A stretch of DNA of 64,000 nucleotides from contig JAZNOJ010000053.1 of assembly GCA_045580735.1 (NCBI GenBank), positions 9,362-73,361 on the forward strand, given 5' to 3'. The DNA is from Candidatus Egerieisoma sp. Its GTDB lineage: Bacteria > Bacillota > Clostridia > UBA1212 > UBA1255. Shown in pieces: positions 17,321-37,159 of this stretch. A model generated the notes under the pieces. It was given only the letters and a program-made list of their open reading frames with translations, was not told the DNA's origin and searched no databases. Position 1 is the first letter of the stretch, and each line of letters opens with the position of its first letter. Position numbers and translations under genes: made by a program.

Positions 17321-18298
17321 TTAAAGAGAAAGCATTTTACTTGTTTCAATCATAGACTCATCGATTTCTTTTTTCATTTCAAGTGCTTCTTCAATATCTA
17401 GTGCTATATATTTATCATTTTTAGAAGCAATGATTCGATTTTTTTCACCTAGCTGTAATACTTCAGTAGCCTTAACAGCCATCAAGCTTGCAGCAACTCT
17501 ATCACGAACAGTAGGACTTCCACCTCTTTGTAAGTGACCTAAAATTGTCGTTGTTGTAGAAATTCCGGTAATCGATTTTATCTGGTCAGCAATTTCGAGT
17601 GTTCCACCTACACCCTCTGCTATTATAACAATATAATGATGCTTTCCGCGATTTCTACAACCAATAATAGGCTGAATAATATCTGTATCAATATTAAAAT
17701 TCTTTTCCGGTAAAATACAAGCCTCTGCACCATCTGCTATAGCACAGTGAAGTGCTATATATCCTGCTCCACGTCCCATAACCTCAACAACACTGCATCT
17801 TTCATGTGAATATGCTGTATCTTTAATTTTATCTATTGAATCCTTAACTGTATTTAATGCTGTATCAAATCCTATAGTATAATCAGTGCATCCAATATCA
17901 TTATCAATTGTTGCAGGTATACCTACTACATTTACGCCTTCTCTAGAAAGTGCTCTTGCACCTCTAAAAGAACCATCACCACCGATAACAACAATTGCAT
18001 CTAATTGGAATACCTCTGCCATTCTGGCAGCTCTTTTTACACCCTCATCTGTTGCAAATTCCTTACTTCTTGCTGTTTGCAAAATAGTTCCGCCTCTGCT
18101 CATAATATCAGAAACTGATCTGAGATTCATCTCAAAGACGTCACCTTTTAATAAGCCTTCATATCCTTTTTTTATTCCATAAACCTGAAAACCTCTATAG
18201 ATACCTGATCTTACAACTGCTCTTATAGCAGCATTCATCCCAGGTGCATCTCCTCCAGATGTTAAAACACCAATTCTTTTAATTGCCATATTTCTCAA
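17321..18298 (-). CDS. pfkA: ATP-dependent 6-phosphofructokinase
   Basis: IKRIGVLTSGGDAPGMNAAIRAVV and GGDGS motifs, 325 aa. Confidence 0.95.
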   Translation of the reverse strand: MRNMAIKRIGVLTSGGDAPGMNAAIRAVVRSGIYRGFQVYGIKKGYEGLLKGDVFEMNLRSVSDIMSRGGTILQTARSKEFATDEGVKRAARMAEVFQLDAIVVIGGDGSFRGARALSREGVNVVGIPATIDNDIGCTDYTIGFDTALNTVKDSIDKIKDTAYSHERCSVVEVMGRGAGYIALHCAIADGAEACILPEKNFNIDTDIIQPIIGCRNRGKHHYIVIIAEGVGGTLEIADQIKSITGISTTTTILGHLQRGGSPTVRDRVAASLMAVKATEVLQLGEKNRIIASKNDKYIALDIEEALEMKKEIDESMIETSKMLSL

Positions 18299-18328
18299 AC
18301 CTCCTATAAACTATTTCAATAAATTATA

Positions 18329-21772: not shown

Positions 21773-21773
21773 T

Positions 21774-23525
21774 TTATTCTTGTGTTATAGGCATAATTTT
21801 GCCAATAATCTCCTCTTTTAGCTTTAATACTTTATTATGTGCATCGTCAAGATTATCACCCTTTGCACCAAAATAAACCTTAATTTTTGGCTCTGTACCT
21901 GATGGTCTTAAGCAGAACCATTTATCCGCATATTCAAACTTTAAAACATTTGAAGATGGAAGTGGATAATTCTTATTTACAGAAACAACATTACCCTCTT
22001 TATCAAATACGGTCTCTTCTGATTTTAAAATATCAATGTAAATATTCGGAACCTCATCTAAAAATTTACCATTAGTTCCACGAACAGTTTCCATAATCTT
22101 TTTAATCATCTTAAGTCCAGCCTCGCCTTTTAGATTGATAGAAACCTGCATTTCATTATGATAGCTATACTTACGATAAATTTCATCTAATGCTTCGAAT
22201 AAGGTTTTTCCATTTGCAACATAATAAGCAGCAGCCTCAGCCATGAAAACACAGCCTGCAACAGCATCCTTATCTCGTGCATATGTGCCTGGTAAATATC
22301 CATAGCTTTCTTCAAAACCAAACAAGAAGTTTTTATCACCATTCTCATCTAAATCCATTATCTGTTCACCAATAAATTTAAAGCCTGTAAGAACGTCAAT
22401 ATATTCAACATTATTTGCCTCACAAATTTCTTTAGTTAATCTTGTAGATACGACTGTAGAAACAATAAATGGATTAATAGGCATTGTAGCTCTGGTTTTA
22501 TGACTTTGAATGATTCTCTCGGTTAATAATACGCCAATTTGGTTACCGTTTAATAAAGAATATCCCCCATTAGGATCCTTTGCAAAAACGCCTGTTCTAT
22601 CAGCATCAGGATCTGAAGCCAAAATAATGTCAGCGTTCACCTTTTTTGCAAGCTCAAGTGCTAATGTAAAGGCAGCGGGATCTTCAGGATTTGGAACGTT
22701 TACAGTTGGGAAATTACCATCCGGCATCATTTGTTCTGAAACACAATGAACATTAGTAACACCACATTCCTTTAATAAGTCCGGAATCCATTTTGCACCA
22801 GCACCATGAAGCGGAGTGTAAACAACAGTTAGTTTACTACCATTCTTTTTAAATCCATCCTTATCTGCTATTAGCTTTTTGAGCTCCTTAAAGAAAATAT
22901 TTTTAATATTTGCATCAACATATTTGATATTATTACCTGTTTTGAAGAAATCAAAGCTAAACGAAGGAACCTTTGTATAATCTGTGATTGCATTCATTAA
23001 TTTTGAAATTTGTTCACTATCATCTAATGAAAGCTGTGCACCATCTGGTCCGTATACTTTATATCCATTATATTCTTTTGGATTATGGCTAGCTGTAATC
23101 ATAACGCCTGCAGCACATCTTAAATGTCTTATTGAAAAAGATAACACAGGTACTGGTACAATTTCAGTATGAAGATATACTTTAATTCCATTGCCTGCAA
23201 AAACAGCAGCTGCCTCTTTAGCAAATTCATATGAAAAATTTCTGCTGTCATATCCGATTACAATACCATCCTTTTTAGCTTTTGAACCTTTAGAAGAAAT
23301 ATGCGCTGCGATTGCTGTGCTTAATCTTCTGACAACATATTTATTCATTCTATTAGTTCCGGCACCTAATATACCTCTTATTCCGGCTGTACCAAAATCT
23401 AGTTCTTTATAAAATCTTTCTCTTATTTCAATTGAATTATCTGCAATAGCTTCAAGTTCTTTTCGTGAATCCTCATCAAAATATCTGTTTGTAGCCCACT
23501 GTGTATATACAGCTGATATATCCAT
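21774..23525 (-). CDS. Phosphoglucomutase/phosphomannomutase family phospho-sugar mutase (PgcA-like)
   Basis: The active-site loop is TASHNPKEYNGYK. Length is 583 aa. Confidence 0.85.
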   Translation of the reverse strand: MDISAVYTQWATNRYFDEDSRKELEAIADNSIEIRERFYKELDFGTAGIRGILGAGTNRMNKYVVRRLSTAIAAHISSKGSKAKKDGIVIGYDSRNFSYEFAKEAAAVFAGNGIKVYLHTEIVPVPVLSFSIRHLRCAAGVMITASHNPKEYNGYKVYGPDGAQLSLDDSEQISKLMNAITDYTKVPSFSFDFFKTGNNIKYVDANIKNIFFKELKKLIADKDGFKKNGSKLTVVYTPLHGAGAKWIPDLLKECGVTNVHCVSEQMMPDGNFPTVNVPNPEDPAAFTLALELAKKVNADIILASDPDADRTGVFAKDPNGGYSLLNGNQIGVLLTERIIQSHKTRATMPINPFIVSTVVSTRLTKEICEANNVEYIDVLTGFKFIGEQIMDLDENGDKNFLFGFEESYGYLPGTYARDKDAVAGCVFMAEAAAYYVANGKTLFEALDEIYRKYSYHNEMQVSINLKGEAGLKMIKKIMETVRGTNGKFLDEVPNIYIDILKSEETVFDKEGNVVSVNKNYPLPSSNVLKFEYADKWFCLRPSGTEPKIKVYFGAKGDNLDDAHNKVLKLKEEIIGKIMPITQE

Positions 23526-23644: not shown

Positions 23645-26101
23645 TTATTCAGTTACTGTTTCATCCTCAGTTGTAGAGTCATCATCAGCTACTGTTTCGT
23701 CTTGTATAAATGTTTCACCATTTATTATATAAGATTCATTTGTAAGCTCATCATAGAATCTTATTAAATCATTGATTGTTAATGCTTCATCAGTAACAGT
23801 GCAATCTGTTAATGTAATAACAACATTCTCCATTGCTTCAATTGACATTATTGGATTAAATACGCAATTAACGAGCTCTGCACTACCATAAATTCTAAGC
23901 ATATTAAATTCAGGAACAGCATGCTCTTCGAAAACACAATTTTCCATGTAAACATTAACATCGGTTGCGAATGAAGTCCATCCAGAAATTACACAGTTCT
24001 TGAAAATAACATCACCTGAGCCTTCAAAGTGAGCTCCGTATATCTCGCCTTTGAAAACACAGCCATCAAATACAACTGTGTCTGATACTTCAGAACCATA
24101 TAATCCGTTTGTACCTTCGAATGTACAATCTACAAATTCACCTGAGCCTGAAATTACAGCAGATGTATCATCCTCGCTTTTAAATATTACATTTTCAACC
24201 TTTACATCCTCTTTAATAACCGGTTTATCTGAAATAACAGTATCACCGTTACCAACGATTGTTACTCCACTTGGAATTGAATCTCCAATTTCATAAGAAC
24301 CATTTTCAAGAATTATAGTATCACCTGCTGTAGAATTATCAATTACATCCTTTAATTGTTCTTGTGTTTCAACCTTTGTTGGAGTAAAATCATAAATTCT
24401 ACCATTAATAATTGCTGTTGAGCTAAATTCTTCAAATACAGCTACATCTAAAAGATTTGAAATATCACAGCCGTCAGAAACTACACAATTATCTAATTTA
24501 ACAGTTACATCATTATTTTGAACATCAATTACATAATCACAATCGAAAGTTGAATTTGATACTGTAGCATCATTATAGAATCTAAGCTGACTATAGAATT
24601 TACCAGCTTTAAATGTTGTATTATCAATAGAAACATCTAAGCCATTAGCAAATGATGACCATCCTGAAACAAGGCAATCATTAATTGCAACCTTACCATT
24701 ACCAAGGATATTTAAAGCATAAACAGCACCGATAAATGAACAGTTATTAAATGTTACTTCATCACTAACAGTTGCAGGTTTAACAGCTGATGCACCGTCA
24801 AATATACAATTATTGAATATAGCTGAACCATTAAAAGTTAAAGCTACTAAATTATCGTTTTCAAATTTAACTGTATCAAAAACAACATCTTTAAGATTAT
24901 TTAGGCTAAGACCTGTATTTTCATCAGCATTTACAATTACAGTACCTACTGTACCCATAATTGTAATTCCTTCAGGAAGCTCATTTGGAAGAGTGAATTT
25001 TCCTGAACCAAGATTAATAACATCTCCAACATTTGTATTGCTTAAAGCAGCATCAAAAGAATCCTGTGTTGTTATATATTCAACAGTTGGTTTTTCTTCT
25101 TCTTCATAAAAACCAGCAATTGTTCTTCTGATTACAACAACATCCTTTGTGTTGATTTCATTATCAGAATTATAATCAGCATATGCTAAATTCATATCGA
25201 GATCCTGCCAATTAGCAATATGTCTACGAATTAAGGCAACATCAGATGTAGTAAGAATACCATCCTCATTAACATCGCCTGCTTTTATTTCTAAATCTGA
25301 TACAACAACATATGCAGCATTATAAACACCTTCAACAGGAACAGCTGATACATTAATTATTACATCTTCTCCACAGAAAACATCAAATTCAAGGAATTTA
25401 ATTTCTCCATTATCTATTCCATTTTCTGATAATTTATAAACATTTGCACCAACAGTAGCTGTAATTTCTACTTCAGTTCCTTCCAAAGCATTTGAAACGT
25501 AAAGTCTAGCTGTTTTATCTTCGTTAGCTGTCCAAGAGTAAGTAACACCATCCTTATCTCCTTCGTCTAAATCAGTAGCTAAACTGTCAACATTAGAAAC
25601 ATTCATTGGATTAGAATCTGTGCCTTCTGGATAAGCAAATTTTAAATTAATCTTTGCATCGAAGCCTGAAAAGTTCAAAATCCAAAAAGTAATTGTCGCT
25701 TCTGAATCTAAAGCATCTATTGGGAAGAAATCTTTAACATAAACATCTTCCTGTGATGTACCGGCAATCTCAGAAATGACAGTATGAACATCAATTTCAG
25801 CTTTATCAAAATTAGTAATATATAAATCCATACCACCAATTTTACCTTCAAAATATGTCCATGAATTTGCAGGAAGTACAGTGTCAAAATTATAGCTTTC
25901 AATCTTTATAGGATTTGATTCTGTACCTAAAGTAGCATCTGTTACATCTTCAGTAGTTGTATCTTCTACTGCTCCATCATTGGCTGTTCCTGCTGTAACA
26001 GATTCATCTGCACCAGAAATTTCTTCGGCGCTAACAGGAACAACTGCTAACATCGTTACCATAATTGCTAATGCAATTAAAAGTGAAAGAATTTTTTTCA
26101 T
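23645..26101 (-). CDS. Secreted dockerin-containing protein with two tandem right-handed beta-helix (pectate-lyase/NosD-like) modules
   Basis: The signal peptide is MKKILSLLIALAIMVTMLAVVPVSAEE. An internal type-I dockerin duplicate (GDVNEDGILTTSDVALIRRHI ... DYNSDNEINTKDVVVIRRTIAG) lies at aa ~275-340. Two homologous ~220-aa modules with repeated N[CD][VI]F..G motifs occupy aa ~348-575 and ~580-800. Confidence 0.75.
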   Translation of the reverse strand: MKKILSLLIALAIMVTMLAVVPVSAEEISGADESVTAGTANDGAVEDTTTEDVTDATLGTESNPIKIESYNFDTVLPANSWTYFEGKIGGMDLYITNFDKAEIDVHTVISEIAGTSQEDVYVKDFFPIDALDSEATITFWILNFSGFDAKINLKFAYPEGTDSNPMNVSNVDSLATDLDEGDKDGVTYSWTANEDKTARLYVSNALEGTEVEITATVGANVYKLSENGIDNGEIKFLEFDVFCGEDVIINVSAVPVEGVYNAAYVVVSDLEIKAGDVNEDGILTTSDVALIRRHIANWQDLDMNLAYADYNSDNEINTKDVVVIRRTIAGFYEEEEKPTVEYITTQDSFDAALSNTNVGDVINLGSGKFTLPNELPEGITIMGTVGTVIVNADENTGLSLNNLKDVVFDTVKFENDNLVALTFNGSAIFNNCIFDGASAVKPATVSDEVTFNNCSFIGAVYALNILGNGKVAINDCLVSGWSSFANGLDVSIDNTTFKAGKFYSQLRFYNDATVSNSTFDCDYVIDVQNNDVTVKLDNCVVSDGCDISNLLDVAVFEEFSSTAIINGRIYDFTPTKVETQEQLKDVIDNSTAGDTIILENGSYEIGDSIPSGVTIVGNGDTVISDKPVIKEDVKVENVIFKSEDDTSAVISGSGEFVDCTFEGTNGLYGSEVSDTVVFDGCVFKGEIYGAHFEGSGDVIFKNCVISGWTSFATDVNVYMENCVFEEHAVPEFNMLRIYGSAELVNCVFNPIMSIEAMENVVITLTDCTVTDEALTINDLIRFYDELTNESYIINGETFIQDETVADDDSTTEDETVTE

Positions 26102-26319: not shown

Positions 26320-27213
26320 TTAAGAAAAAACATTTCCAACCATCATAAGAGATAGTAATCCTATAGCAAAACCTATAAGCTGAGGAATTTTGAATTTTTC
26401 TTTAAATAAGACAAGTCCTACCAAGCCTGACAGGAATATTGCACCACCATTTACAATCGGGAAGAATATTGCAGCAGGTAATTGACCTGAAAGATTTAAA
26501 TTAATTACATGCATTGTTACTGTAAAGCAGCCTGTGATCGATGCAAGTCCAATCTTTTTAAATTTCCAATCTGCAAATGCAACCTTAAGCTTTGTTTTCT
26601 TATGAGTTTTTATAAATAACTCAATTAATATTAATATTGCAGATGTAATAAAAGCAATACACAAAAATGCATATTTTTCTTCGCTGCAGTAAGAACGTCT
26701 TTGGTATTTTTGCATAATACCAATAAGACCTGAAAGCACAAAAATTGCCCCACAGCATACAATCCATTTTCCTGTTACCTTTCCAGTATCATTTTTTGAA
26801 AGAACAAGATAAATTGCAATAATCATTAAGACAATTCCAATAATCTGAATAACATTTATATCTTCATCCCATAGAATTACGCTATAAATTGTAGGTATTA
26901 GCATACCACAGCTTGATACGAGAACAGTAAATGACATTGGACCTGATTGAAAGGCTGTAGTCTTTACTAAAAAGGTTGCGCTATTTATAACGCCAAAAAT
27001 AACACCTAAAAATATAGTATAGGGAGAAATTTTATCTAAAGTAAGACAAAACGGGATTAAAACAATTGCGCTGCTTAATGACAAAAAGAGATTAAAAATA
27101 TAATTATCTGCAGGACCTACTAACTGTTTTTTTGCAAATTTATTATTAAACGAGCTTGCGGCAACATTTACAAAAACCGAAATAAGCATCAATACATATT
27201 CCATAATCAACAT
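26320..27213 (-). CDS. EamA/DMT-family membrane transporter (putative)
   Basis: 297 aa with about 10 predicted TM helices in two repeated halves. Confidence 0.5.
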   Translation of the reverse strand: MLIMEYVLMLISVFVNVAASSFNNKFAKKQLVGPADNYIFNLFLSLSSAIVLIPFCLTLDKISPYTIFLGVIFGVINSATFLVKTTAFQSGPMSFTVLVSSCGMLIPTIYSVILWDEDINVIQIIGIVLMIIAIYLVLSKNDTGKVTGKWIVCCGAIFVLSGLIGIMQKYQRRSYCSEEKYAFLCIAFITSAILILIELFIKTHKKTKLKVAFADWKFKKIGLASITGCFTVTMHVINLNLSGQLPAAIFFPIVNGGAIFLSGLVGLVLFKEKFKIPQLIGFAIGLLSLMMVGNVFS

Positions 27214-27285
27214 CCAATCTCAATAAAATAATCATTTCAAACTCATGAATATTAGCATATATTATTAAAATTTACAAGATAAAAT

Positions 27286-27741
27286 TCATGAATGTTTTTG
27301 TAAATAATTTGTAATTTGTCTGATAGTTTTACTCAATGCTGTACCTATAATAATACCAACTGCAAGTGAGGCGGCGTATTGCAGGGTTGCTGTTCCCTTT
27401 TGAAAAAACATATTCATATCCTTTTCAAGTACATATTCCATTGTATAATATAAAGAGCTTCCGGGGATTAAAGGAATCAGGCTTGTTATTGTAAAAACAC
27501 TCGCAGGAGTTTTTAAAAATACAGCCATAGCTTCAGAATATAATGTTATTAATGCTGCTACAATTATATATCTTGTTGGCTCGCCTTCAATAAAAATTCC
27601 GAGTAAAAGAAAAATAAGCCATGATATAAAGCCACCTATTGCAGTAAATAATAATTTTTTCCCTCTAATATTAAATAAAATACCAAAACCAATTGCTCCT
27701 AAGCAGCCTGTAATAACCTGAGAAATTTCAAATAAAGTCAT
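27286..27741 (-). CDS. Threonine/serine exporter family protein, ThrE C-terminal-like half (YjjB/DUF3815)
   Basis: 151 aa with 4-5 TM helices. Its start overlaps the stop of the upstream DUF1212-type partner by 4 nt. Confidence 0.7.
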   Translation of the reverse strand: MTLFEISQVITGCLGAIGFGILFNIRGKKLLFTAIGGFISWLIFLLLGIFIEGEPTRYIIVAALITLYSEAMAVFLKTPASVFTITSLIPLIPGSSLYYTMEYVLEKDMNMFFQKGTATLQYAASLAVGIIIGTALSKTIRQITNYLQKHS

Positions 27742-28490
27742 GCTAAACCTCCAAAAAAGAGAGCACCTGTTAAAAAGCCTGCAGCTATAGCTAAGGCTGA
27801 GGTTACGGCTTCAATAACGCGCACAGTACCTGCAATATTATGACCTGTAAGTAAATCTCTAATTGCATTAGTTAATGCAACAGCAGGAATCAACACCATT
27901 ATATTTCCAATCATAACCATGTCAACTTTTTCAATGACTCCAATTATTACAAATAAATAAGAAAAGACTGTAGCAATTAATGAGCAGAAAAATTTTGAAA
28001 AAATTCTTATCATATTAATTTTTTCAATAAACTTTACAACAAATCTACCAATAACACCTATAAATAAAGAAACTATTGCTTCGGTAATATTGCCGCCAAA
28101 AAAAATTGTAAAACCACCAGTAATCATTGCATATGCTAGACATTCTATTGGAAAAGAATATTTTTTACATTTTTTGATATTTTCCAATTCAATTTTAATT
28201 TCTTCTTCAGATAAATTATATGAGCATATTTTTCTTGATAAATTATTTAATAAATGAAGCTTTTCAATATTCGTATCTGCTGTTAATATTCTTCTGGTTT
28301 GTGTATATGTTTCACCATTGTCGTCATATAATGTAACAACCATACTTGAGGTTGTGGTAAAAACATCAGTACGCTTTACATTTTTAGAATTACACATTCT
28401 CCAAATACTGTCTTCAACTCTGTGAATTTCAGCACCACTAATTATCATTTCTTCACCTATATCCATTACAATTTGAAGCAAATTTTTCAA
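27738..28490 (-). CDS. Threonine/serine exporter family protein, ThrE N-terminal-like half (YjjP/DUF1212)
   Basis: The N-terminus LQIVMDIGEEMIISGAEIHRVEDSI is typical of DUF1212. Length is 250 aa. Confidence 0.75.
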   Translation of the reverse strand: MKNLLQIVMDIGEEMIISGAEIHRVEDSIWRMCNSKNVKRTDVFTTTSSMVVTLYDDNGETYTQTRRILTADTNIEKLHLLNNLSRKICSYNLSEEEIKIELENIKKCKKYSFPIECLAYAMITGGFTIFFGGNITEAIVSLFIGVIGRFVVKFIEKINMIRIFSKFFCSLIATVFSYLFVIIGVIEKVDMVMIGNIMVLIPAVALTNAIRDLLTGHNIAGTVRVIEAVTSALAIAAGFLTGALFFGGLA

Positions 28491-28544: not shown

Positions 28545-28570
28545 AAATAGTAGTGCCCTGTGAGTTTTTC
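28545..28570 (-). terminator. GC-rich hairpin terminator between the thrE-like operon and the rpiB-like gene
   Basis: CCCTGTGA (gtttt) TCACAGGG stem, with T-runs on both sides (plus-strand tttttt at 28575-28580). Confidence 0.5.
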
Positions 28571-28596
28571 ACAGGGCAGCATTTTTTAAAAATTTT

Positions 28597-29166
28597 TTAT
28601 TCAGGTTTTCTTTCAAGCTTTAAAGGATAATCACCTAAATGTTTAACCTTGAAACCATTAGCTTTATACTCTTCATAATCAAAAGCATCTAATTCGTCAA
28701 TAGCAAGCTTATGGAATTCGTAGAAATTGTGCCACCATTCATACCCGCTACCGAGCTCTGTGCCAAGATATGCTTCAACAATATCAATTGCCATAGCAGG
28801 AGCAACATAAAAAGCACCCATAGCAAGAACGTTTACGCCATTACCTGTAATAGCACGTAGAGCAGCCGGAACACTCTCTACTACACCAGCATGAACACCC
28901 GGACATTTGCTTGCAGCAATGTGGATACCCATTCCTGTTCCGCAGAAAATAAGAGCACGCTCAAATTCCTTTTCCGCAATCATAGAGCCAACTCTTAGTC
29001 CAACGCGGTGGAACATTAAATCAGTATCTGTATCTTCAGGTGAACGAACACCTACATCTGTTACTTCCCAGCCTTTACTCTTTAAATGAGCTACGACATG
29101 CTCTTTAAGAGGGAAACCGGCAAAATCAGCACCTACAAGAATTTGTTTGTTTTTAATTGTTTTCAT
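28597..29166 (-). CDS. RpiB/LacA/LacB-family sugar-phosphate isomerase
   Basis: MKTIKNKQILVGADFAGFPLKEHVVAHLKSKGWEVTDVG with a FCGTGMG core. At 189 aa it is longer than canonical RpiB. Confidence 0.7.
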   Translation of the reverse strand: MKTIKNKQILVGADFAGFPLKEHVVAHLKSKGWEVTDVGVRSPEDTDTDLMFHRVGLRVGSMIAEKEFERALIFCGTGMGIHIAASKCPGVHAGVVESVPAALRAITGNGVNVLAMGAFYVAPAMAIDIVEAYLGTELGSGYEWWHNFYEFHKLAIDELDAFDYEEYKANGFKVKHLGDYPLKLERKPE

Positions 29167-29203: not shown

Positions 29204-30667
29204 TTAATCAAGAAAAAAGTTTTTTAGATTTTCAAAGCCCTTGTGATAACGTTCGAACTTTCTATTATAAAATTCTACAGCATTTGGGTTAGGCTTTAAA
29301 ACCTTGCTATAGCATACCATTTTTTCGGCAGCTTCTAAATAATCATTAAAATAACCATATCCGGTAGCAGCAAGCATACAAGCACCTATACAGCAGGTAT
29401 CTTTTTCAGCCGGAATGTGAAGCTCACAGCCTGTAACATCACATGTAATTTGGCTCCAAAGCTCACTTTTTGCAGCACCGCCAACCATTTTTAATTGATG
29501 TATATCAGTACCATTAGCTGCAAATTCGGCTAGTGATTCTCTAGTTTCAAATGCGATACCTTCCATCAAAGCTCTAGCAAGATCATATTTATCATGCATG
29601 AGCTCTAAGCCTATACAGCATGCTTTAATTTCCGGAACATGATGAGGAAATCCCGAGCCTGCAAAATATGGATAAAAGAAAATATTTTCTGCAGATTCCA
29701 TTCTATCCTCTGCTCTTGCATCAATAATGGGAAATTCTTCATTAACAACCTGCTTATACCATTTAAGTGCAGAACCAGCACTATTTAACGAAGTAATATT
29801 TCCGTAAAGGCCTTTAACAGGATGAACACCAGGTGCTATATGTGATTTAGTAAACAATGGCTTATCAGATACACCTAATATTACCCATGTTGTACCTGTT
29901 GATAAAAGCATTTCTCCAGGCTTTACAGCTCCGCAGCCTAAGGAAGCGCAATACTGATCGTGTGCACCATTATAAACCTTAACTGTTTCCGGTAAATTTA
30001 ATTCCTTTGAAGCTTCCTTTGTCAATGTACCAACGAATGCTCCTGTAGGAAGCATTTCAGGTAATCTTTCCTTTGTAAGACCGGCAGCTTCAATTAATGT
30101 ATCATCCCAATCTGCTGTTTCAACATTTATAAGCTGTCTCATTGCAGCATTAGAAGGATCAGTTACATTTTTTCCGGTTAATTTATAATTTACATATTCA
30201 ACTGTAGAAACAAAGCTATAGGCATTGTTAAAGCTGTCAGGATCATGCTTTTTCATCCATAACATTCTTGCAGGGTCAAAGCAAGCTGAGCATCTCCAAC
30301 CTGATCTTTCATATATTTCTTCGCCGTATTTAGCCTTCAAAGCAGCAGTTTCATCGACAGCTCTTTCATCCATCCATGTATAAGCAAGGCATAAGGGATT
30401 AAAGTTTTCATCTACAGGAAGGATAGTACCTCCTTGTGTAGATAAGGACATTGCAACAATATCATTTTTATTTGATATTGATTTAACAGCTTCATTAACT
30501 GAAAATACAACAGCCTTCCACCAGTCTTCAGCATTTTGCTCAACAACTCCGCCTTTGCCAGCAATGAGCTCATATTCTTGATAACCCTTACCACAAATCT
30601 TACCTTTTTCATCAACAATTATAGTTTTTGTACCTGTAGTACCAACATCTGTTCCAACGAAATACAT
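29204..30667 (-). CDS. FGGY-family carbohydrate kinase
   Basis: N-terminus MYFVGTDVGTTGTKTIIVDEKGK, 487 aa, with a GGAAKS-like C-terminal motif (MVGGAAKSELW). Confidence 0.85.
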   Translation of the reverse strand: MYFVGTDVGTTGTKTIIVDEKGKICGKGYQEYELIAGKGGVVEQNAEDWWKAVVFSVNEAVKSISNKNDIVAMSLSTQGGTILPVDENFNPLCLAYTWMDERAVDETAALKAKYGEEIYERSGWRCSACFDPARMLWMKKHDPDSFNNAYSFVSTVEYVNYKLTGKNVTDPSNAAMRQLINVETADWDDTLIEAAGLTKERLPEMLPTGAFVGTLTKEASKELNLPETVKVYNGAHDQYCASLGCGAVKPGEMLLSTGTTWVILGVSDKPLFTKSHIAPGVHPVKGLYGNITSLNSAGSALKWYKQVVNEEFPIIDARAEDRMESAENIFFYPYFAGSGFPHHVPEIKACCIGLELMHDKYDLARALMEGIAFETRESLAEFAANGTDIHQLKMVGGAAKSELWSQITCDVTGCELHIPAEKDTCCIGACMLAATGYGYFNDYLEAAEKMVCYSKVLKPNPNAVEFYNRKFERYHKGFENLKNFFLD

Positions 30668-30744
30668 TTTATCCTCCGAAAATATAAAACACTAAGCTTC
30701 CATATGAAAATTTCCATATAGAAGCTTAAAGAATAACAAATTAA

Positions 30745-32151
30745 TTAAATTTTATAAACCTTCATATTTAAGAGCTTACCGAAATACATCATTTGCTCTG
30801 GAGTAACATCATATACTAATAAGCTATGATGTGTAGCACCATATTCACTAAGCTTTTTAAGGAAATCTTTTACAGGAATAGATGGCTTCATCCAACCTCT
30901 AATAGTTCTCTTATATTGATCATAGTCATCCTCAAAATTAAGCATTTCAACATCAGTTGCTAAAAGACAGAAGCCTTCAGCATCACGGAAAATATTAATA
31001 TAAACAGCTTTTCCTGCTTTATATCTTGAATATCCCGCCATTGGAAGCACTGAATCAACATAATTAGAACCTCTTAAACGAATTTCAGGCTTATATTGTG
31101 CAACCTTGTAATTCATTTCGCCCATATGGCTCAAGAATAAAATATCATTTTTCCAATCAGGACAGAAAATTTCAACGAATGAAGCTTCACCAAAGGCTCT
31201 AATTAATGCTCCGCAGAAAACCGCATCTAATGCATCACCTTCACCAGCATAACCAATTCCTCTAGTCATAGCTTTACAAGCCTCGATAAAAGGCATTGTA
31301 TCTATTCCATATGCTGGGCAAGCTTTTAAGAAGTTCATTGAAAAAGCATTAAGATTTTCTTTTTCAATCCATTTTCTCATAGCAATACATGCTCTAATAT
31401 TTAATCTATATACTTCATCGTCAATTTCAATTGGGAAATCAAAATATTCTTCATTAGCCTTAATTTCTGCTTCAATTTCTTCATCTGTTACTGATTGGGT
31501 AATTTGACGCATTTCATCGCTCTTTGATTCAATAAACTCAACGCCAAAATTTTCCATCATTTCTTCTGGTGTAACGATAAAATCTCCCATTCCGGCAAAG
31601 GAACCACCAAATACACCAACCTTAGAGCCTTTCGCAGAATTAGCAGCCATGGCAGCTTTTACATATTTAACAGTTTCATCTACGACATTAGACTCTTTAT
31701 AATGGCCACATGTAATAGCATATTCCTTTCTGCCTCTCTTTAGTAGATTACAAAAATCCATTACACCATGAATACCGTGGTTGTAATCTAATTCATCATT
31801 TATTGTTTGTGGTGTAAATTCGTAAGTCATTGTAGTATCCATTACAACAATTGGAAGCTTTGTATTAATCAATGCTTCAGCTGATTCAAGTGATGGAGAA
31901 TATGCCATATGTAATGTTACAATACAATCTGCATTTTCATTTTCGTAATTTTCTACAGCATTTTTAAATTCGTTTGCAAGTCTGCAAAATGGTGTTCTAA
32001 TAACCTCGAGTCCTTTGCTCTCTAAAATGTCAGCCATTTCATCATAAAAGGCTTCTAATCTAGGTCTTAATTCACCACAGCTGTCATCATATAGCTTAAT
32101 GTAAAGCGGTAAAAATCCTATTTTAATTTTTTTCATAATAAATTCCTCCAA
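30745..32151 (-). CDS. L-arabinose/L-fucose isomerase-family sugar isomerase (putative)
   Basis: 468 aa. The N-terminal KIKIGFLPLYIKLYDD and the overall size resemble the AraA/FucI superfamily. Membership is inferred, not certain. Confidence 0.45.
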   Translation of the reverse strand: MEEFIMKKIKIGFLPLYIKLYDDSCGELRPRLEAFYDEMADILESKGLEVIRTPFCRLANEFKNAVENYENENADCIVTLHMAYSPSLESAEALINTKLPIVVMDTTMTYEFTPQTINDELDYNHGIHGVMDFCNLLKRGRKEYAITCGHYKESNVVDETVKYVKAAMAANSAKGSKVGVFGGSFAGMGDFIVTPEEMMENFGVEFIESKSDEMRQITQSVTDEEIEAEIKANEEYFDFPIEIDDEVYRLNIRACIAMRKWIEKENLNAFSMNFLKACPAYGIDTMPFIEACKAMTRGIGYAGEGDALDAVFCGALIRAFGEASFVEIFCPDWKNDILFLSHMGEMNYKVAQYKPEIRLRGSNYVDSVLPMAGYSRYKAGKAVYINIFRDAEGFCLLATDVEMLNFEDDYDQYKRTIRGWMKPSIPVKDFLKKLSEYGATHHSLLVYDVTPEQMMYFGKLLNMKVYKI

Positions 32152-32154
32152 TAA

Positions 32155-33177
32155 TTATATATTTATGTTAAATAATTCTGCAGCATTATTGCACAGAATA
32201 TCACTAATATTCTCTTTTGTTAATTTTAATTCATTTGCAGCTCTTTTAAAAGCAAGCAATTCTTCATACATAAAGCATGTTATTTCTTTTTTATCTGTTT
32301 CAACCATATGGATATCCCCGGAAACATCTCCATATAAGCCTCTTGGAACATTATTATAATATATTCCATTTTTAAATGTCCTAAACATTCTCATCTTTAC
32401 TATCGGAAGATCCGAACCGAACATTAATCTTTTTGGTCCTACAGCCTCAATACATTTTATCATAGCGTTATCATATGTATTAGCTGTAAAATCAAACATC
32501 ATATTTTTTGTGTTTTTAAGTATTTCAAAAGCATTTCCTAAATCCTCAGGTGTATATGCTCTTCCAATATGAGCTACTATTAGCTTAATATTAGGATATT
32601 TTTCTTCGATTTCTAATAATTGAGCTATATTAAGCGGATCATTAAGTCTTCCGGGTCTTGATATATGAAGCATTATAATCCAGCCTTTTTTATTTGCAAT
32701 TTCTAAATGCTCTTTCGTTAGAAAATCAAAAATTCGGATTTCTTTATTTGGTATATAATCCGGTGAGTTATTTAAGTAAGGCTTTAAGCCTAAAAAGCCC
32801 CCTTGTTCAACCTCTTTTTCTAAAAACTCAGCACTCATGGACCAATCAGTGCAATAAAGTGCAGGTAAATTATACTCTTTTGATGCAGCTTGTGTATATT
32901 TATTTGTTTTATCAAGATCGCATTGCGGCTCACCTAATAAAACAGGCTTTACAAGCTTACTCGGAAACATGTCCTTATATGTTTGTAATAAATCTTCAAT
33001 GGTATTATCCTTAGCAACCATTCCTGTCCAAGATACACAGCCTCTTATGCCAACCTTTTTGTCAAATTCTTCTTTCCATATGTGAGTATGACAATCTATT
33101 ATTTTAGATGGCAGAAAGTCTTCTAATTCGTCTTTATATACCATTATATCGTAATCTGATGGTTTATATCCAAACAT
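32155..33177 (-). CDS. Amidohydrolase-2 family TIM-barrel metal-dependent hydrolase
   Basis: IIDCHTHIW metal-binding start and ...HIGRAY..., 340 aa. Confidence 0.6.
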   Translation of the reverse strand: MFGYKPSDYDIMVYKDELEDFLPSKIIDCHTHIWKEEFDKKVGIRGCVSWTGMVAKDNTIEDLLQTYKDMFPSKLVKPVLLGEPQCDLDKTNKYTQAASKEYNLPALYCTDWSMSAEFLEKEVEQGGFLGLKPYLNNSPDYIPNKEIRIFDFLTKEHLEIANKKGWIIMLHISRPGRLNDPLNIAQLLEIEEKYPNIKLIVAHIGRAYTPEDLGNAFEILKNTKNMMFDFTANTYDNAMIKCIEAVGPKRLMFGSDLPIVKMRMFRTFKNGIYYNNVPRGLYGDVSGDIHMVETDKKEITCFMYEELLAFKRAANELKLTKENISDILCNNAAELFNINI

Positions 33178-33304: not shown

Positions 33305-33799
33305 TTATTCACCTATGATCATTACCTGAACAGTACGGCTTCTTGCTCTTGTTTGGTCAAAATCAATGAAATGAATATGACCGAATTCGCCTAAATCGAG
33401 CTCTCCATCGATTAATACGATTGTTTCACTTCTGCCAATGATTGACGAACGAAGATGTGCATCTGTATTATGACAGCCTCTTGCATCCTCATCATGCTCT
33501 TCAGCAAATTTTAAAGCCTTTGGTCCCGGATGTAAATACATACCCTCATGCTTGCATACAGGAATGATATCATCCATTATGTTTACTAAATCCTGCTGTA
33601 ATGTCTCAAGTCCTGTAATTGATTCATCAAAAGCACATTCCTGAGTGATTACACAGCAAGTTGTATGATGAGAATAAACTACACAAATACCATTCTTTAA
33701 GCCAGAACGCTTTGTGATTGCCTTTACTTCATCTGTTACATCGTGGAAAGTACATATCTTATCATTAGATTGTAGCTTAATCGCTTCTCTATAAATCAT
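33305..33799 (-). CDS. YjbQ/UPF0047 family protein, paralog A
   Basis: It aligns to E. coli YjbQ, with a core SHHTTCCV and the segment HPGP...HLRSSIIGRSETIVLIDGELDLGEFGHI. Length is 164 aa. Confidence 0.75.
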   Translation of the reverse strand: MIYREAIKLQSNDKICTFHDVTDEVKAITKRSGLKNGICVVYSHHTTCCVITQECAFDESITGLETLQQDLVNIMDDIIPVCKHEGMYLHPGPKALKFAEEHDEDARGCHNTDAHLRSSIIGRSETIVLIDGELDLGEFGHIHFIDFDQTRARSRTVQVMIIGE

Positions 33800-33801
33800 A
33801 A

Positions 33802-34512
33802 TTATTCTCCCATCTTCTTTAAATCATCTGCAGCTTGTCTTACAGCAGCAATCATCTCATCTATCATAGCAATAGGATCCTCAGCATTCATAATTCCAGA
33901 TGCTGCACCTGCTGCTTCTGAGCCAGCCATAATAAAATCATATACCTGCTTGCCGTTTGTGATACCTGCAGCCTGTTCAACTAATATATTAGAGTCAATC
34001 TCTCTAATAGCTTGCATAACTTCTTTAACGTAGCTCATGTCACTTACGCCACCACCTGAGCCACCGATTAATTCTGTAGGCTCTGGATTAATGATATCCG
34101 GATGGAGCTGTGCAATAGCTTTTGCTTCTGCAACAGTATCAGCGCATGCAAATACTAAGAAATCTATTTCGTTTGCTCTATCAATAGTTGCTTTTATTTG
34201 TGGAAGAGACATAGGCTTTTCACAATGGTTTACAACTACCCCTACGGCTCCTGCAGCCTTTAATGCTTCAGGAAGAACATCTGCCATGCCTCTGCCAGGA
34301 CGAAGTGTATCCATATATGGAGCTAATACAATAAGATTTTTTGTATTTTGAACAACATTTCTAATCTCTACAGCAGGGCAAATAAAAAGTACATCAATAT
34401 CATACTTTTCAGCCGCTGCGTCTGCTGCCTTTGCATACTCTAAAACCTTGTCACCATATATATAATTTTTTGTACCTATTTCAAAATAAGGTGTTCTAAT
34501 TTTTCTTTTCAT
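33802..34512 (-). CDS. Triosephosphate-isomerase-family (TIM-like) protein, divergent
   Basis: 236 aa that aligns across TPI: NHCE matches the TPI catalytic His-x-Glu region, and IINPEPTELIGGSGGGVS matches the YEPVWAIGTGK catalytic Glu loop. The C-terminal phosphate-binding-like GITNGKQ...AGSEAAGAASG is present. Confidence 0.55.
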   Translation of the reverse strand: MKRKIRTPYFEIGTKNYIYGDKVLEYAKAADAAAEKYDIDVLFICPAVEIRNVVQNTKNLIVLAPYMDTLRPGRGMADVLPEALKAAGAVGVVVNHCEKPMSLPQIKATIDRANEIDFLVFACADTVAEAKAIAQLHPDIINPEPTELIGGSGGGVSDMSYVKEVMQAIREIDSNILVEQAAGITNGKQVYDFIMAGSEAAGAASGIMNAEDPIAMIDEMIAAVRQAADDLKKMGE

Positions 34513-34533
34513 GTCTATATTGCCTCGATGAGA

Positions 34534-35154
34534 TTATCTCTTAAGTTGAAGATCATAGTGAGGATCATATGCCTTTTCTTCATCTGTATATTTACGAAGT
34601 GTATTAACAACCTCACCGTTGTTAAACTTACGATCTTCTACATCCTCTGTAGTACCCATAATAGTAACATTTAATTGTCTACGACGAGCTCTAACATGAT
34701 CCCAGTCTACAAAGTAAATATGTGCAAATTCTCCGCCATCAAGCTCACCATCTTTAATTGTCATAACCTCGCTACGGCCAAAGAATACACTTCTTAAATG
34801 TCCGTCTGTATTCATGCTTGTGAAGTCGCCTGGCTCATCAACGTAACGACCAAATTGTGTATGAATTGGTCCTGGATGACGATATTGATGCTCTTCAGCA
34901 AAATCAGGAGCAATTTTTCTCATAATATCAAGAAGGTCATGTTGTAAATATTCGATATCAAATGAATCGATGTCATGTGAACATTCTTGAATCATTACAC
35001 AGCAAGTTGTATGATGTGATGCAAGATTACATGTACCATTTTTTACGCCTGATGCTTTAACAATTTCTATAACTTCCTTTGATACATCGTGAAATGTTGG
35101 TATCCAACCTCTAGATTGTAATTCAATTTCCTTCTGATAAACTTTAAATTCCAT
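34534..35154 (-). CDS. YjbQ/UPF0047 family protein, paralog B (with C-terminal extension)
   Basis: It has the same SHHTTCCV core as paralog A, then HPGP...HLRSVFFGRSEVMTIKDGELDGGEFAHI. The 206 aa include a charged 45-aa tail. Confidence 0.75.
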   Translation of the reverse strand: MEFKVYQKEIELQSRGWIPTFHDVSKEVIEIVKASGVKNGTCNLASHHTTCCVMIQECSHDIDSFDIEYLQHDLLDIMRKIAPDFAEEHQYRHPGPIHTQFGRYVDEPGDFTSMNTDGHLRSVFFGRSEVMTIKDGELDGGEFAHIYFVDWDHVRARRRQLNVTIMGTTEDVEDRKFNNGEVVNTLRKYTDEEKAYDPHYDLQLKR

Positions 35155-35309
35155 AAAAAATTCCTCCGTATAATAATATTTTATCTACTTTGATTCACAG
35201 GTAATGAAATTTTCCTGCATATACCAAAGAATAACACTTTTAAGTGTTTACGTCAATACAATTAAATTAATGTCAGTACACAATATACTGACATCAATTA
35301 TATAAACTA

Positions 35310-35615
35310 TCATTTATTTTGTGGTTTATATTTACCACTTGAGTATGGATTCTTATTTGGTCTTGCTTCACTTGTTTCGTTTGAGCAGGATGCTGCCCAT
35401 CCTATAAAATACATCCAACCAATCATTATAATTAACCATAAAGCAAGTGCTGCAACAAACCACCAAATAGAAATATCAAATATAAAATGACACGCTAATA
35501 AAATCCATGCAGGAATAGACCATTCAATATTCAACACAATATTAATTAATAAGCAGGCAAAAAAGCCTAAATGAGTCTTTGATGTTTTTCTCATGTTATC
35601 TCTATCACCTTTCAA
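35310..35615 (-). CDS. Small membrane protein (2-3 TM), hypothetical
   Basis: 101 aa with hydrophobic helices and a basic C-terminal tail. Confidence 0.35.
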   Translation of the reverse strand: MKGDRDNMRKTSKTHLGFFACLLINIVLNIEWSIPAWILLACHFIFDISIWWFVAALALWLIIMIGWMYFIGWAASCSNETSEARPNKNPYSSGKYKPQNK

Positions 35616-35683: not shown

Positions 35684-37159
35684 TCAAACAATATCTCCTG
35701 AATCAAATGGGTCTCCACATTCCGGGCAGAATTTAGGAGCTTTTGTAGGATCAGCAGGCTCCCAGCCACATTTATCGCATTTATATTGTGGAACACCTTC
35801 CGGCTTTTTTGCTCCACATTGCTGGCAGAACTTTCCTTTATTTACAGATCCACATGTGCAGGTCCATCCATCAGCCTGTGCTGGCTTTGGAGCTCCACAC
35901 TCAGGACAGAATTTACCACTTGTGACTGCACCACATGCGCATTTCCAACCTCCTTCGACAATCTGAGGTTCAGGCTTTGCCTTACCACAATTAGGACAGA
36001 ACTTTCCGTTTACATTTGCACCACACGCGCATGTCCAAGTATTTGTTGCTGGTACAGAATTTTGAGCTTGTTGTTGCATTTGTTGCTGCTGTTGCATTTT
36101 CATTTGCTCTTCCTGAACTGCTTGATTATAGAAACTTTGAGCAGCATTAAAGCCACCACCCATTCCACCAGCATTCATTGCCATTCCCATGCCCATAAAG
36201 CCCGTCATTGCACCTGCGGTATTTCCGGCTGCAATTTCCATAGCATTAGCTGAGGCTGTTGTCATTCTTCCTGCCATTGCTCTTGCATTTGAACCATATG
36301 AAGCAGAACTCTCAAATTCATTAATTATCTTCATATCCTCAGGTGTTAAGCTTATAGGATTAAGTGTGATTTTTTCTATTGAAATACCACGTGTTTCTAT
36401 CCAATCTGTCTTAAGAGTTTCATTCATTGCATCCTTGAGCTCTTTTGTCTTACCTGAAAGCTGTGCTGGCTTTAATTCCATATCAGATAAAACACCAAAA
36501 GCAGGAATTAAAGCATCTATAAATTCGCCCTTTAGTTGTTCATCAATTTCCTCTCTTCTATATTCGTCTGCAACATTACCACATACTCTTGTATAAAATA
36601 GGAGAGGATCTTTTAGAATATATGAATACATACCGTTACATCTTACATTAACAGTTCTCGAAAGTCCAAGCTCTTTATTTTTGATTTCAAACATAATTGG
36701 AGTTGGTGTGCCGAATTTATTTCCCATAATTTCTTTTGTATTAAAGTAATAAACTCTTTGATCCTTGCCTGTATCTCCACCATAAGCAAAACGCTTACCG
36801 AATGTTTTAAAGGATTGAATAATACTTTCACCTAAGCTTCCTGAAAATATTGAAGGCTCTGTAGATGAATCGTATGTAAACTCACCCGGCTCTGCACAAA
36901 CCTCAACAATCTTACCCTGCTCAACAATAATCATACACTGTCCATCAGCAACAGCTATTCCTGAGCCGTTAGAGATAATATTATCATTTGCTTTTGTATT
37001 TGAAGAACGTCCACTTACACGTTTTTGACCTTTTTTCATTAATACATCCATTTCTATTGCGTCGCAATAGAAAAATTCTTTCCATTGATCTGCCAACATT
37101 CCTCCGGCAGAACCTAATGCAGCTTTAATTAAACCCATATTAAAAACCCCTTTTAACAA
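35684..37159 (-). CDS. SPFH/band-7 (stomatin/prohibitin-like) domain protein with four C-terminal zinc-ribbon repeats
   Basis: The C-terminus has four W.C.CG...GKFCP.CG..KP zinc ribbons after a poly-Gln linker (MQQQQQMQQQAQ). This architecture, an SPFH domain followed by C-terminal zinc ribbons, matches COG4260. Confidence 0.6.
   Translation of the reverse strand: MLKGVFNMGLIKAALGSAGGMLADQWKEFFYCDAIEMDVLMKKGQKRVSGRSSNTKANDNIISNGSGIAVADGQCMIIVEQGKIVEVCAEPGEFTYDSSTEPSIFSGSLGESIIQSFKTFGKRFAYGGDTGKDQRVYYFNTKEIMGNKFGTPTPIMFEIKNKELGLSRTVNVRCNGMYSYILKDPLLFYTRVCGNVADEYRREEIDEQLKGEFIDALIPAFGVLSDMELKPAQLSGKTKELKDAMNETLKTDWIETRGISIEKITLNPISLTPEDMKIINEFESSASYGSNARAMAGRMTTASANAMEIAAGNTAGAMTGFMGMGMAMNAGGMGGGFNAAQSFYNQAVQEEQMKMQQQQQMQQQAQNSVPATNTWTCACGANVNGKFCPNCGKAKPEPQIVEGGWKCACGAVTSGKFCPECGAPKPAQADGWTCTCGSVNKGKFCQQCGAKKPEGVPQYKCDKCGWEPADPTKAPKFCPECGDPFDSGDIV

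Follow-up and report, generated by a model that had tools for sequence, protein, structure and literature searches.

A divergent YjbQ subfamily paired with triose-phosphate-isomerase-like proteins in a putative sugar-catabolic operon of gut Clostridia

The window analyzed here, a 64,000-nucleotide stretch of contig JAZNOJ010000053.1 from Candidatus Egerieisoma sp. (Clostridia; assembly GCA_045580735.1) with a low GC content of ~33%, contains three closely packed minus-strand genes that combine two members of the UPF0047/YjbQ family with a homolog of triose-phosphate isomerase (TIM for the family, TPI for the enzyme). The first gene, designated YjbQ-L (34534..35154), encodes a protein of 206 amino acids that matches the Pfam profile PF01894 with an E-value of 2.4e-24 (86.2 bits; cut-off, 27). 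The TIM-like gene (33802..34512) begins after a gap of 21 nt and encodes an archaeal-type TIM homolog of 236 amino acids (PF00121, E 3.5e-11; 43.5 bits; cut-off, 20.1). A gap of only 2 nt separates it from YjbQ-S (33305..33799; 164 amino acids; PF01894, E 1.2e-26; 93.5 bits; cut-off, 27), a paralog of YjbQ-L with ~50% identity. The translated open reading frames contain NHCE and INPEPTELIGG in the TIM-like protein and HHTTCCV in the YjbQ proteins. A first-pass annotation made from the letters and open reading frames of this DNA had reported three genes of these lengths and spacings and had assigned them to the YjbQ, TIM, and YjbQ families. Its coordinates match exactly, the profile scores pass the Pfam cut-offs, and inspection of gene neighborhoods revealed the same combination in other genomes. 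Chance is ruled out by the long open reading frames, the strong profile matches, and the existence of hundreds of conserved orthologs; the three genes are genuine.

The same annotation had treated the trio as a complete operon. Instead, the three genes stand at the beginning (5') of a catabolic operon of seven genes that extends on the minus strand from 35154 to 28597. Located 127 nt downstream of YjbQ-S on the same strand is a gene (32155..33177) for a 340-amino acid protein with the Amidohydro_2 metal hydrolase fold (PF04909, E 1.9e-19) and an HxH...H...D motif, which may function as a lactonase, hydrolase, or isomerase; a sequence search of the PDB returned no relative of this protein. The next gene (30745..32151) encodes a 468-amino acid sugar isomerase of the AraA/FucI superfamily. 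This protein scores 103.7 bits against NF002795 (cut-off, 622) and falls short of the L-arabinose isomerase equivalog, and its matches to the three AraA domains are weak. The FGGY carbohydrate kinase that follows (29204..30667; 487 amino acids) is nearest to xylulokinase (TIGR01312, 324.8 bits; cut-off, 380). The last gene (28597..29166) encodes a 189-amino acid sugar-phosphate isomerase of the RpiB/LacAB family, which scores 87 bits against NF051858 (cut-off, 240) and 104 bits against the RpiB subfamily (cut-off, 135). The RpiB-like protein also carries a C-terminal extension of ~45 amino acids. An AT-rich hairpin with a T-run (30692..30729, minus strand), weakly resembling a terminator or attenuator, lies between the isomerase and kinase genes, and a GC-rich, bidirectional terminator-like hairpin (28554..28578, assigned to neither strand) closes the operon.

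Upstream of YjbQ-L lie a hairpin that ends the preceding gene, a promoter-like site with the arrangement TTGACG-17 nt-TATTCT (35228..35256, minus strand; a consensus match only), and a GGAGG ribosome-binding site. Because the scan of the region yielded 74 promoter-like sites against 69.5 expected from shuffled sequences, a total not above chance, only the site directly upstream of YjbQ-L was retained. The spacer between its -35- and -10-like hexamers contains a perfect 16-bp palindrome, AACACTTAAAAGTGTT (35233..35248, assigned to neither strand), of which this is the sole exact copy within the window and which may be an operator for a regulator. Homologs of DeoR and SIS proteins are absent from the 64-kb window, unlike the loci of relatives described below. 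An Rfam scan of the window returned no family at the gathering score, including no thiamin pyrophosphate (TPP) riboswitch.

The TIM-like protein passes the cut-off of NF003302, the NCBI profile for archaeal-type TPI (150.1 bits; cut-off, 132), and lies below that of the bacterial/eukaryotic equivalog TIGR00419 (54.8 bits; cut-off, 130.6). It aligns over its full length with the TIMs of P. woesei (E 8e-31) and M. jannaschii (E 3e-28) with 31% identity, and P. woesei TIM is its best match in the PDB. An AlphaFold2 (AF2) model (pLDDT 81) matches the structures 1hg3, 1w0m, and 2h6r with TM-scores of 0.74–0.86 and thus predicts a (β/α)8 barrel superposable on solved archaeal TIMs. The protein was initially described as short and divergent. 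Short it is, but the cause lies in its archaeal-type lineage, in which the barrel comprises ~225 amino acids, and not in decay. Like the archaeal enzymes (P. woesei, 1HG3), the TIM-like protein retains the catalytic Lys, His, and Glu (K15, H96 and E98 of NHCE, and E144 of EPTELIGG), the phosphate-binding loops 6–8, and the segments AAGIT and AASG. Unlike them, it has a two-residue (GG) insertion in loop 6, where confidence in the model is low, carries Gly13 in place of Asn, and occurs in a bacterial host within a sugar operon beside YjbQ rather than in a glycolytic context. Neither a canonical tpiA gene nor a gap-pgk-tpi cluster is present in the 64-kb window. Relatives of the protein number 3,531 at E ≤ 1e-10, and the top 120 of them bear the public name "triose-phosphate isomerase".

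YjbQ-S scores 81 bits against TIGR00149 and exceeds its cut-off of 67.75; YjbQ-L, with 63.3 bits, lies below it. The AF2 model of YjbQ-L (pLDDT 84.7, with a C-terminal tail of 40 amino acids at low confidence) was matched by Foldseek to the YjbQ structures 2p6c, 1vmj, 1vph, 1xbf, and 1ve0 with E-values of 1e-14 to 1e-9 and also to 1vmf, 2p6h, and 2cu5, the best matches giving TM-scores of 0.82–0.91 on the target, and no fold other than YjbQ appeared below E 0.03. The model thus assigns YjbQ-L to the YjbQ fold; YjbQ crystal structures are trimers. In common with canonical members (E. coli YjbQ, T. maritima TM0723, and ST2072), the protein has, besides the fold, an H-T-T motif, an N-x-x-A-H-L-K/R motif, and an acidic F-D-x-D/EFDG segment. 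It differs from them in an insertion of ~30 residues with the hallmark Y-x-H/Y-P-G-P-x-H, in the replacement of the C-terminal GTWQ by GEF(G/A) (GEFAH/GEFGH versus LGTWQ in solved canonical members), in an Arg triad on the C-terminal strand, in an invariant Cys after HTT, and in the linkage of one to three paralogs to TIM genes. Residues H48, T49, C51, D73, P83, Y91, P94, G95, N115, H119, D150, D152, and R157 are invariant in the subfamily, and E57, D61, R155, and R159 are conserved in at least 90% of its members. Queried with YjbQ-L, a set of 1.84 billion representatives gave just 473 matches at E ≤ 1e-3, of which 27 reached E ≤ 1e-30, and this marks these proteins as a small, divergent YjbQ subfamily. 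Relatives at E ≤ 1e-5 number 1,040, and the top 120 are publicly named "YjbQ family/secondary thiamine-phosphate synthase".

The adjacent cysteines of HHTTCCV had been considered an unusual core shared by both copies. Both copies do contain the pair, but it is not a family feature: YjbQ-L has HHTTCS in 115 and HHTTCC in 4 of 120 database homologs, and HHTTCS in 63 of 72 locus copies; YjbQ-S has CC in 12 and CS in 7 of 19 copies. Of the two, the first Cys alone is invariant, and canonical S. tokodaii ST2072 has it as well (HTTCA). We therefore rejected the CC pair as a functional hallmark, the second Cys being mostly Ser in YjbQ-L. The earlier remark that YjbQ proteins are poorly characterized agrees with a literature that offers promiscuous activities without a physiological function. 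One report cites a weak complementation of ThiE by canonical YjbQ in multicopy and describes how multicopy yjbQ suppresses pdxB in E. coli through a pathway in which 2-oxo-3-hydroxy-4-phosphobutanoate has to be formed (PMC3010111); a 2021 review and a 2026 preprint give YjbQ as of "unknown function" and with "no clear function", respectively.

A scan for YjbQ-L loci in one genome per GTDB species yielded at least 564 confirmed stretches. Neighbors were counted within 10 kb of YjbQ-L in the best 80 of these loci, many of which are cut by contig ends (individual loci, here and below, carry numbers with the prefix L). The YjbQ-L orthologs in these loci are 86–99% identical, and the top 120 relatives of YjbQ-L and of the TIM-like protein, each 78–100% identical, belong to uncultured Clostridia of the gut and rumen. 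The commonest partner of YjbQ-L is an SIS isomerase (77/80), followed by the TIM-like gene (65/80, within 1 kb in 55 of them) and the FGGY kinase (62/80). An AraA/FucI-like isomerase occurs in 35 of the 80 loci, a DeoR regulator in 28, YjbQ-S in 22, a TAL/FSA protein in 21, an Amidohydro_2 protein in 20, and a NagA-like protein in 13. In hundreds of Clostridia from gut and rumen, the constant set consists of YjbQ-L, an SIS or RpiB isomerase, an FGGY kinase, and a TIM-like protein. The SIS protein of the relatives is nearest to the SIS domain of the KpsF/GutQ/KdsD arabinose-5-phosphate isomerases (E 3e-35) and lacks CBS domains.

Two architectures can be distinguished. Type A, to which the window belongs, has the order YjbQ-L, TIM (75–99% identity), YjbQ-S; type B has the order TIM (~47% identity), SIS, YjbQ-L, FGGY, FucI-like, in some cases followed by TAL/FSA, and lacks YjbQ-S. 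Accordingly, 21 of the 24 loci with a type-A TIM also have YjbQ-S, as against none of the 41 with a type-B TIM; one further YjbQ-S locus has no TIM match. In a species whose TIM-like protein is 87% identical to that of the window, the block reads YjbQ-L, TIM, YjbQ-S, Amidohydro_2, AraA-like, FGGY, with divergently oriented SIS and DeoR genes. Locus L010 shares ~82% DNA identity with the window over the trio and 99% protein identity in YjbQ-L, and it carries a divergent SIS gene upstream (8105–8701) and no RpiB-like gene, whereas the window carries an RpiB-like gene after the kinase. Judged from the sequences, this difference looks like a non-orthologous swap of two phospho-sugar aldose-ketose isomerases. 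The module extends to a Treponema contig (L005; GCA_054684395.1) with the order YjbQ-L, TIM-like, YjbQ-S, SIS, near FGGY, AraA-like, and ABC sugar transporter genes; its YjbQ-L is 82% identical to the Clostridial protein, which suggests lateral transfer. The TIM-like gene of this contig (10651–11381) is split into open reading frames of 93 and 151 amino acids, either by a frameshift (a pseudogene) or by an assembly error.

The genes at the front end of the loci vary and include Amidohydro_2, NagA/NagB-like, ceramidase-like, GH4, DUF4838, BNR_2 with DHDPS, and polyol phosphotransferase system (PTS) genes. This variety suggests that YjbQ, TIM, and SIS constitute a shared lower module. The enzymes that usually follow an isomerase-kinase pair are scarce in the 80 loci: class II fructose-bisphosphate aldolase occurs in three, an aldolase of the FucA/AraD type in one, and an EryC-like epimerase in none, a tblastn search with R. 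leguminosarum EryC giving no match in the 80 loci or the window. The gene clusters that recur near the module and were annotated include no thiamin gene; they consist of sugar isomerases, kinases, transporters, and regulators of the DeoR, PRD, and SorC types.

Several type-B modules have further recurrent neighbors. Directly preceding some of them are genes for a 2-oxoacid/acetoin-dehydrogenase-like complex, which in L063, L068, and L069 (fused E1 alpha-beta of 821 amino acids, E2, and E3) lie ~2.4–6.4 kb upstream. A 502-amino acid protein with no or a marginal family match recurs in 9 loci (e.g., L042, 13404–14912), and a 324-amino acid protein weakly similar to glucosamine-6-phosphate deaminase in 11 (e.g., L030, 6327–7301), often together with NagA-like and ceramidase-like genes.

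Distant members of the subfamily, 34–45% identical to YjbQ-L, again adjoin TIM genes. The gene order is EIIC-GAT, class II aldolase, TIM, three tandem YjbQ, and iron-containing alcohol dehydrogenase (Fe-ADH) in L094; FucI-like, TIM, and YjbQ, the latter two overlapping, in L096; EIIA, aldolase, TIM, EIIB, EIIC, an unknown gene, YjbQ, and a GFO oxidoreductase in L097; and TIM, YjbQ, EIIB, and EIIC in L101. L099 has the order FGGY, YjbQ, 2-oxoacid_dh, and RpiB. The tandem YjbQ paralogs of L094 (3372–4915), which recur in L095, comprise 166, 171, and 174 amino acids and are separated by 1-nt gaps; three such paralogs would match the trimeric architecture of YjbQ. An 8-nt overlap joins the first of them to the TIM gene before it, and overlaps across L096 and L094 range from 4 to 8 nt. 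The alignment of the broad subfamily was too diverse for a pattern-based locus search, and a narrower alignment was used instead. A metagenome scan seeded with this second clade gave 507 confirmed stretches, of which 55 loci of at least 6 kb were counted. A TIM gene is present in 53 of the 55, a class II aldolase in 47, and a galactitol-type PTS in ~32. The typical operon reads PRD regulator, EIIA, EIIB, EIIC, unknown protein of 167–185 amino acids, aldolase, YjbQ, TIM, and with just three soluble enzymes it offers the simplest setting of the pair; a variant has a glucitol-type PTS and dehydrogenases of the DRL type or Fe-ADH. In 31 of the 55 loci (e.g., L097, 7444–8001; L107, 7464–7967), the gene for the conserved 167–185-amino acid protein has EIIC on one side and the aldolase or YjbQ gene on the other; the protein is predicted to contain two membrane helices at its N-terminus and lacks a Pfam match.

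In TIM, Asn10 contacts O1 and O2 of the triose. The first-pass annotation had noted correctly that the TIM-like protein keeps the His-x-Glu and Glu-loop positions of TPI (NHCE and INPEPTELIGG) and had overlooked that Gly13 stands where this catalytic, substrate-binding Asn sits (IGTK versus INFK in archaeal TIM). G13 is invariant in 27 database homologs, and Gly occupies the position in all 55 window-type relatives with a resolved N-terminus: 18 of 18 of type A, 16 of these with IGTK, and 37 of 37 of type B, which have GPK. In the second clade, by contrast, the TIMs encoded beside class II aldolase retain both N-P-K and NHAE (48/48). Loss of the Asn therefore tracks the aldolase-free, kinase- and isomerase-containing context. 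The same loss is seen in TpiB/EryH of the R. leguminosarum erythritol locus, which reads FWIGTSWKMN where TpiA has GNWK, and a Brucella eryH primer listed in one report encodes a matching MTKFWIG start (PMC5468441). The Asn-to-Gly change and its parallel in TpiB/EryH support the view, already voiced in the first-pass annotation, that the TIM-like protein is a non-TPI member of the family similar to tetrulose- or erythrulose-phosphate isomerases. Removal of the Asn side chain would plausibly make room for carbons beyond C1.

This parallel leads to the erythritol and threitol catabolic modules. According to two reports on the pathway, an EryC epimerase, LerI (a TpiA homolog), and DerI (an RpiB homolog) together yield erythrose-4-phosphate; EryH/LerI moves the carbonyl of erythrulose-1-phosphate (3-tetrulose-4-phosphate) to the position beside the phosphate-bearing carbon, and EryI/DerI completes the conversion (PMC10733421; PMC5468441). 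The erythritol locus on R. leguminosarum pRL12 has the order eryA-eryB-eryC-eryD-deoR-tpiB-rpiB, and its kinase is of the FGGY family. Like these modules, the operon in the window has a kinase followed by an isomerase cascade that includes an Asn-less TIM-family protein and an RpiB-family isomerase; DeoR regulation appears in the relatives, and the product would be expected to feed the pentose phosphate pathway. The likeness is one of analogy, since the TIM homolog is of the archaeal type here and of the bacterial TpiA type in EryH, two different TIM lineages. In addition, the operon lacks an EryB dehydrogenase and a xylose-isomerase-like EryC epimerase (0/80 loci), contains YjbQ, AraA/FucI-type isomerase, and Amidohydro_2 genes, and in most relatives has SIS in place of RpiB. 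The operons araBAD, fucPIKUR, and rhaBAD resemble it in combining an AraA/FucI-superfamily isomerase with an FGGY kinase, a DeoR-type regulator (in the relatives), and a dedicated transporter. They differ in that the class II aldolase or epimerase of their third step is replaced here by TIM-like, YjbQ, and SIS/RpiB proteins, and the isomerase and kinase in the window score far below the named equivalog cut-offs.

With a confidence that approaches even but does not reach it, we propose that the trio, conserved as the core of a sugar-catabolic operon, acts as a phospho-sugar isomerization module similar to EryC/LerI/DerI, with YjbQ as the stereochemical partner. In this model, the AraA/FucI-like enzyme would isomerize a free sugar to a ketose that the FGGY kinase would phosphorylate. 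Acting on a ketose phosphate of at least four carbons, the Gly-type TIM homolog would then bring the carbonyl into the position adjacent to the CH2-O-P carbon, as EryH/LerI does with erythrulose/tetrulose phosphate, and interconversion of trioses would be excluded. The RpiB-like or SIS enzyme would carry out a final ketose-to-aldose (or 3-keto-to-2-keto) isomerization to an intermediate of the pentose phosphate pathway, a point of entry that fits the frequent presence of TAL/FSA among the neighbors (21/80). The most speculative element is the role of YjbQ-L and YjbQ-S, which might take the part of EryC by setting the stereochemistry of the same α-hydroxy-carbonyl phosphate, working either as an enantio-complementary isomerase or as an epimerase. 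Residue conservation points to a His/Cys/Asp/Glu cluster that might stabilize an enediolate and to the Arg155/157/159 triad as a potential phosphate site. The two proteins would probably form a hetero-oligomer produced in step with the TIM-like protein; the presence of one to three paralogs adjoining TIM and the 2-nt spacing suggest assembly in fixed proportion. The idea of a small phospho-sugar pathway, advanced in the first-pass annotation, fits the flanking isomerase, kinase, and RpiB/SIS genes.

The proposal of a phospho-sugar isomerization module draws on the RpiB/SIS swap, the scarcity of aldolase and epimerase genes, the loss of the Asn, and the repeated linkage of YjbQ to TIM. The intermediate of the pdxB bypass is another α-keto-β-hydroxy phosphate (PMC3010111). 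Other observations weigh against it. The FGGY kinases are most similar to xylulokinase, an enzyme that places the phosphate at the end remote from the carbonyl, and this regiochemistry would not produce the ketose-1-phosphate that TIM-type chemistry needs. In 14 of the 80 loci, including some cut short where the contig ends, YjbQ-L has no TIM gene within 10 kb, and it stands alone in L007. Deduction of the substrate from the front-end genes gave no single sugar, since these genes differ between loci. The TIM-like protein passes the NCBI cut-off for TPI and keeps three of the four catalytic residues, which may indicate residual or real TPI activity. Finally, YjbQ of the second clade accompanies Asn-containing TIMs and class II aldolase, and the role of YjbQ may therefore lie at the triose level.

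A broader claim about YjbQ itself, which we regard as doubtful though worth stating, is that proteins of the YjbQ/UPF0047 fold form a hitherto unrecognized class of epimerases or isomerases for phospho-sugars or triose phosphates and complement TIM-family enzymes stereochemically. YjbQ would act on the same α-hydroxy-carbonyl-CH2OP moiety in the configuration that TIM cannot use.

The main rival to an isomerization module remains at the triose level. The TIM-like protein would be a true TPI dedicated to the pathway, and one or both YjbQ proteins would either yield dihydroxyacetone phosphate (DHAP) or glyceraldehyde-3-phosphate by cleavage or rearrangement as a new aldolase- or lyase-like enzyme or convert a non-standard triose phosphate such as L-glyceraldehyde-3-phosphate to DHAP for further conversion by the TIM. 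The score against NF003302, the retention of Lys, His, Glu, and the phosphate loops, and the match of the model to the archaeal TIM fold with TM-scores of 0.82–0.86 all accord with this explanation, as does the aldolase-YjbQ-TIM core of the second clade with its Asn-containing TIMs; furthermore, window-type loci contain no recognizable aldolase, so another protein would have to cleave the sugar. We nevertheless consider it unlikely. The catalytic Asn is replaced by Gly in every one of the 55 window-type relatives with a resolved N-terminus, and a validated non-TPI homolog of TIM has undergone the same loss. An RpiB- or SIS-type isomerase would be superfluous in a pure triose route. YjbQ as the missing aldolase is down-weighted because a genuine aldolase is encoded alongside it in the second clade and in L094 and L097.

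It is also conceivable, if distinctly improbable, that the YjbQ proteins are not pathway enzymes and serve the TIM-like and SIS isomerases as accessory subunits for assembly, metal delivery, or allosteric or other regulation. The tight or overlapping spacing of the genes (2 nt in the window and the 4–8-nt overlaps of L096 and L094) and the conservation of YjbQ-L at 86–99% while its neighbors diverge (TIM to 47%, FGGY to 28%) would be explained, one to three paralogs per locus would suit a trimeric scaffold, and the literature establishes no physiological catalysis for any YjbQ. The conserved constellation of polar residues (His, Cys, Asp, Asn, and three Arg) is, however, of the kind usually found in active sites, some loci have YjbQ-L with no TIM gene beside it, and the loci otherwise contain no candidate for the epimerase or aldolase step.

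A role of the module in thiamin phosphate synthesis or salvage, which the first-pass annotation had raised and which the name "secondary thiamine-phosphate synthase", the reported weak multicopy complementation of ThiE (cited in PMC3010111), and a marginal, below-cut-off Pfam match of the TIM-like barrel to ThiG (E 0.003) might recall, is extremely improbable and effectively ruled out by gene context, as the window contains no TPP riboswitch or other Rfam family, the annotated recurrent neighbor clusters contain no thiamin gene, and the subfamily lacks the canonical GTWQ motif.

All proteins of the operon have known folds, and the arrangement of an isomerase and a kinase with further isomerases has an analog in tetritol catabolism. 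The first-pass annotation had called a module of duplicated YjbQ and a TIM-like protein undescribed, and our literature search on YjbQ, UPF0047, and archaeal-type TIM found no account of it. Within the literature searched, three features appear to be undescribed: the systematic pairing, in hundreds of species from two deep clades, of a divergent YjbQ subfamily with TIM genes, Asn-less archaeal-type TIM homologs of gut Clostridia that are automatically annotated as TPI, and the lower module of SIS/RpiB, TIM, and YjbQ. YjbQ/UPF0047 is a long-standing family of conserved hypothetical proteins with many crystal structures and promiscuous activities only. Its pairing with TIM in 65 of 80 and 53 of 55 loci of two deep clades provides the first solid functional context for this orphan family, narrows the search for its substrate to α-hydroxy-carbonyl phosphates, and makes its function testable with a few recombinant proteins. 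On sequence grounds, many gut-bacterial genes automatically annotated as triose-phosphate isomerase that lack a catalytic residue probably do not encode TPIs. The finding points to a sugar-utilization route, undescribed so far, that is widespread in uncultured Clostridia of the human gut and rumen. If the broader claim about YjbQ is correct, the TIM-like, SIS/RpiB, and YjbQ proteins would constitute an aldolase-independent, "carbonyl-walking" route by which unusual sugars (e.g., L-configured or rare ones) enter the pentose phosphate pathway of gut anaerobes. A physiological function would thereby be assigned to an orphan family of bacteria, archaea, and, as mentioned in the literature, plants and fungi, for which nine structural-genomics structures exist.

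Beyond the operon, an EamA-family transporter gene lies further downstream on the minus strand (26320..27213) and is syntenic with the operon in relatives: window positions 26326–27237 align to 19013–19939 of L010, and an EamA gene is also found near the operon in L001–L003. The transporter is a candidate uptake system. A split pair of ThrE-family exporter genes (250 and 151 amino acids; 27286–28490) lies between the RpiB-like and EamA genes and is missing from the syntenic region of L010. The gene at 23645–26101 encodes a secreted protein of 818 amino acids in which a type I dockerin (residues 274–328) sits between the N-terminal region and two internally repeated, β-helix-like halves; this protein may be associated with a cellulosome. 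Genes for 6-phosphofructokinase, a DnaE-type polymerase III alpha subunit, and a phosphoglucomutase-like protein occupy 17321–23525, upstream on the same strand. On the other side of the operon, the gene at 35684–37159 encodes an SPFH/Band-7 protein whose linker is rich in Gln and whose C-terminus carries four to five zinc-ribbon (CxxC...CxxC) repeats, and it is followed by a gene (35310–35615) for a 101-amino acid membrane protein without a family match.

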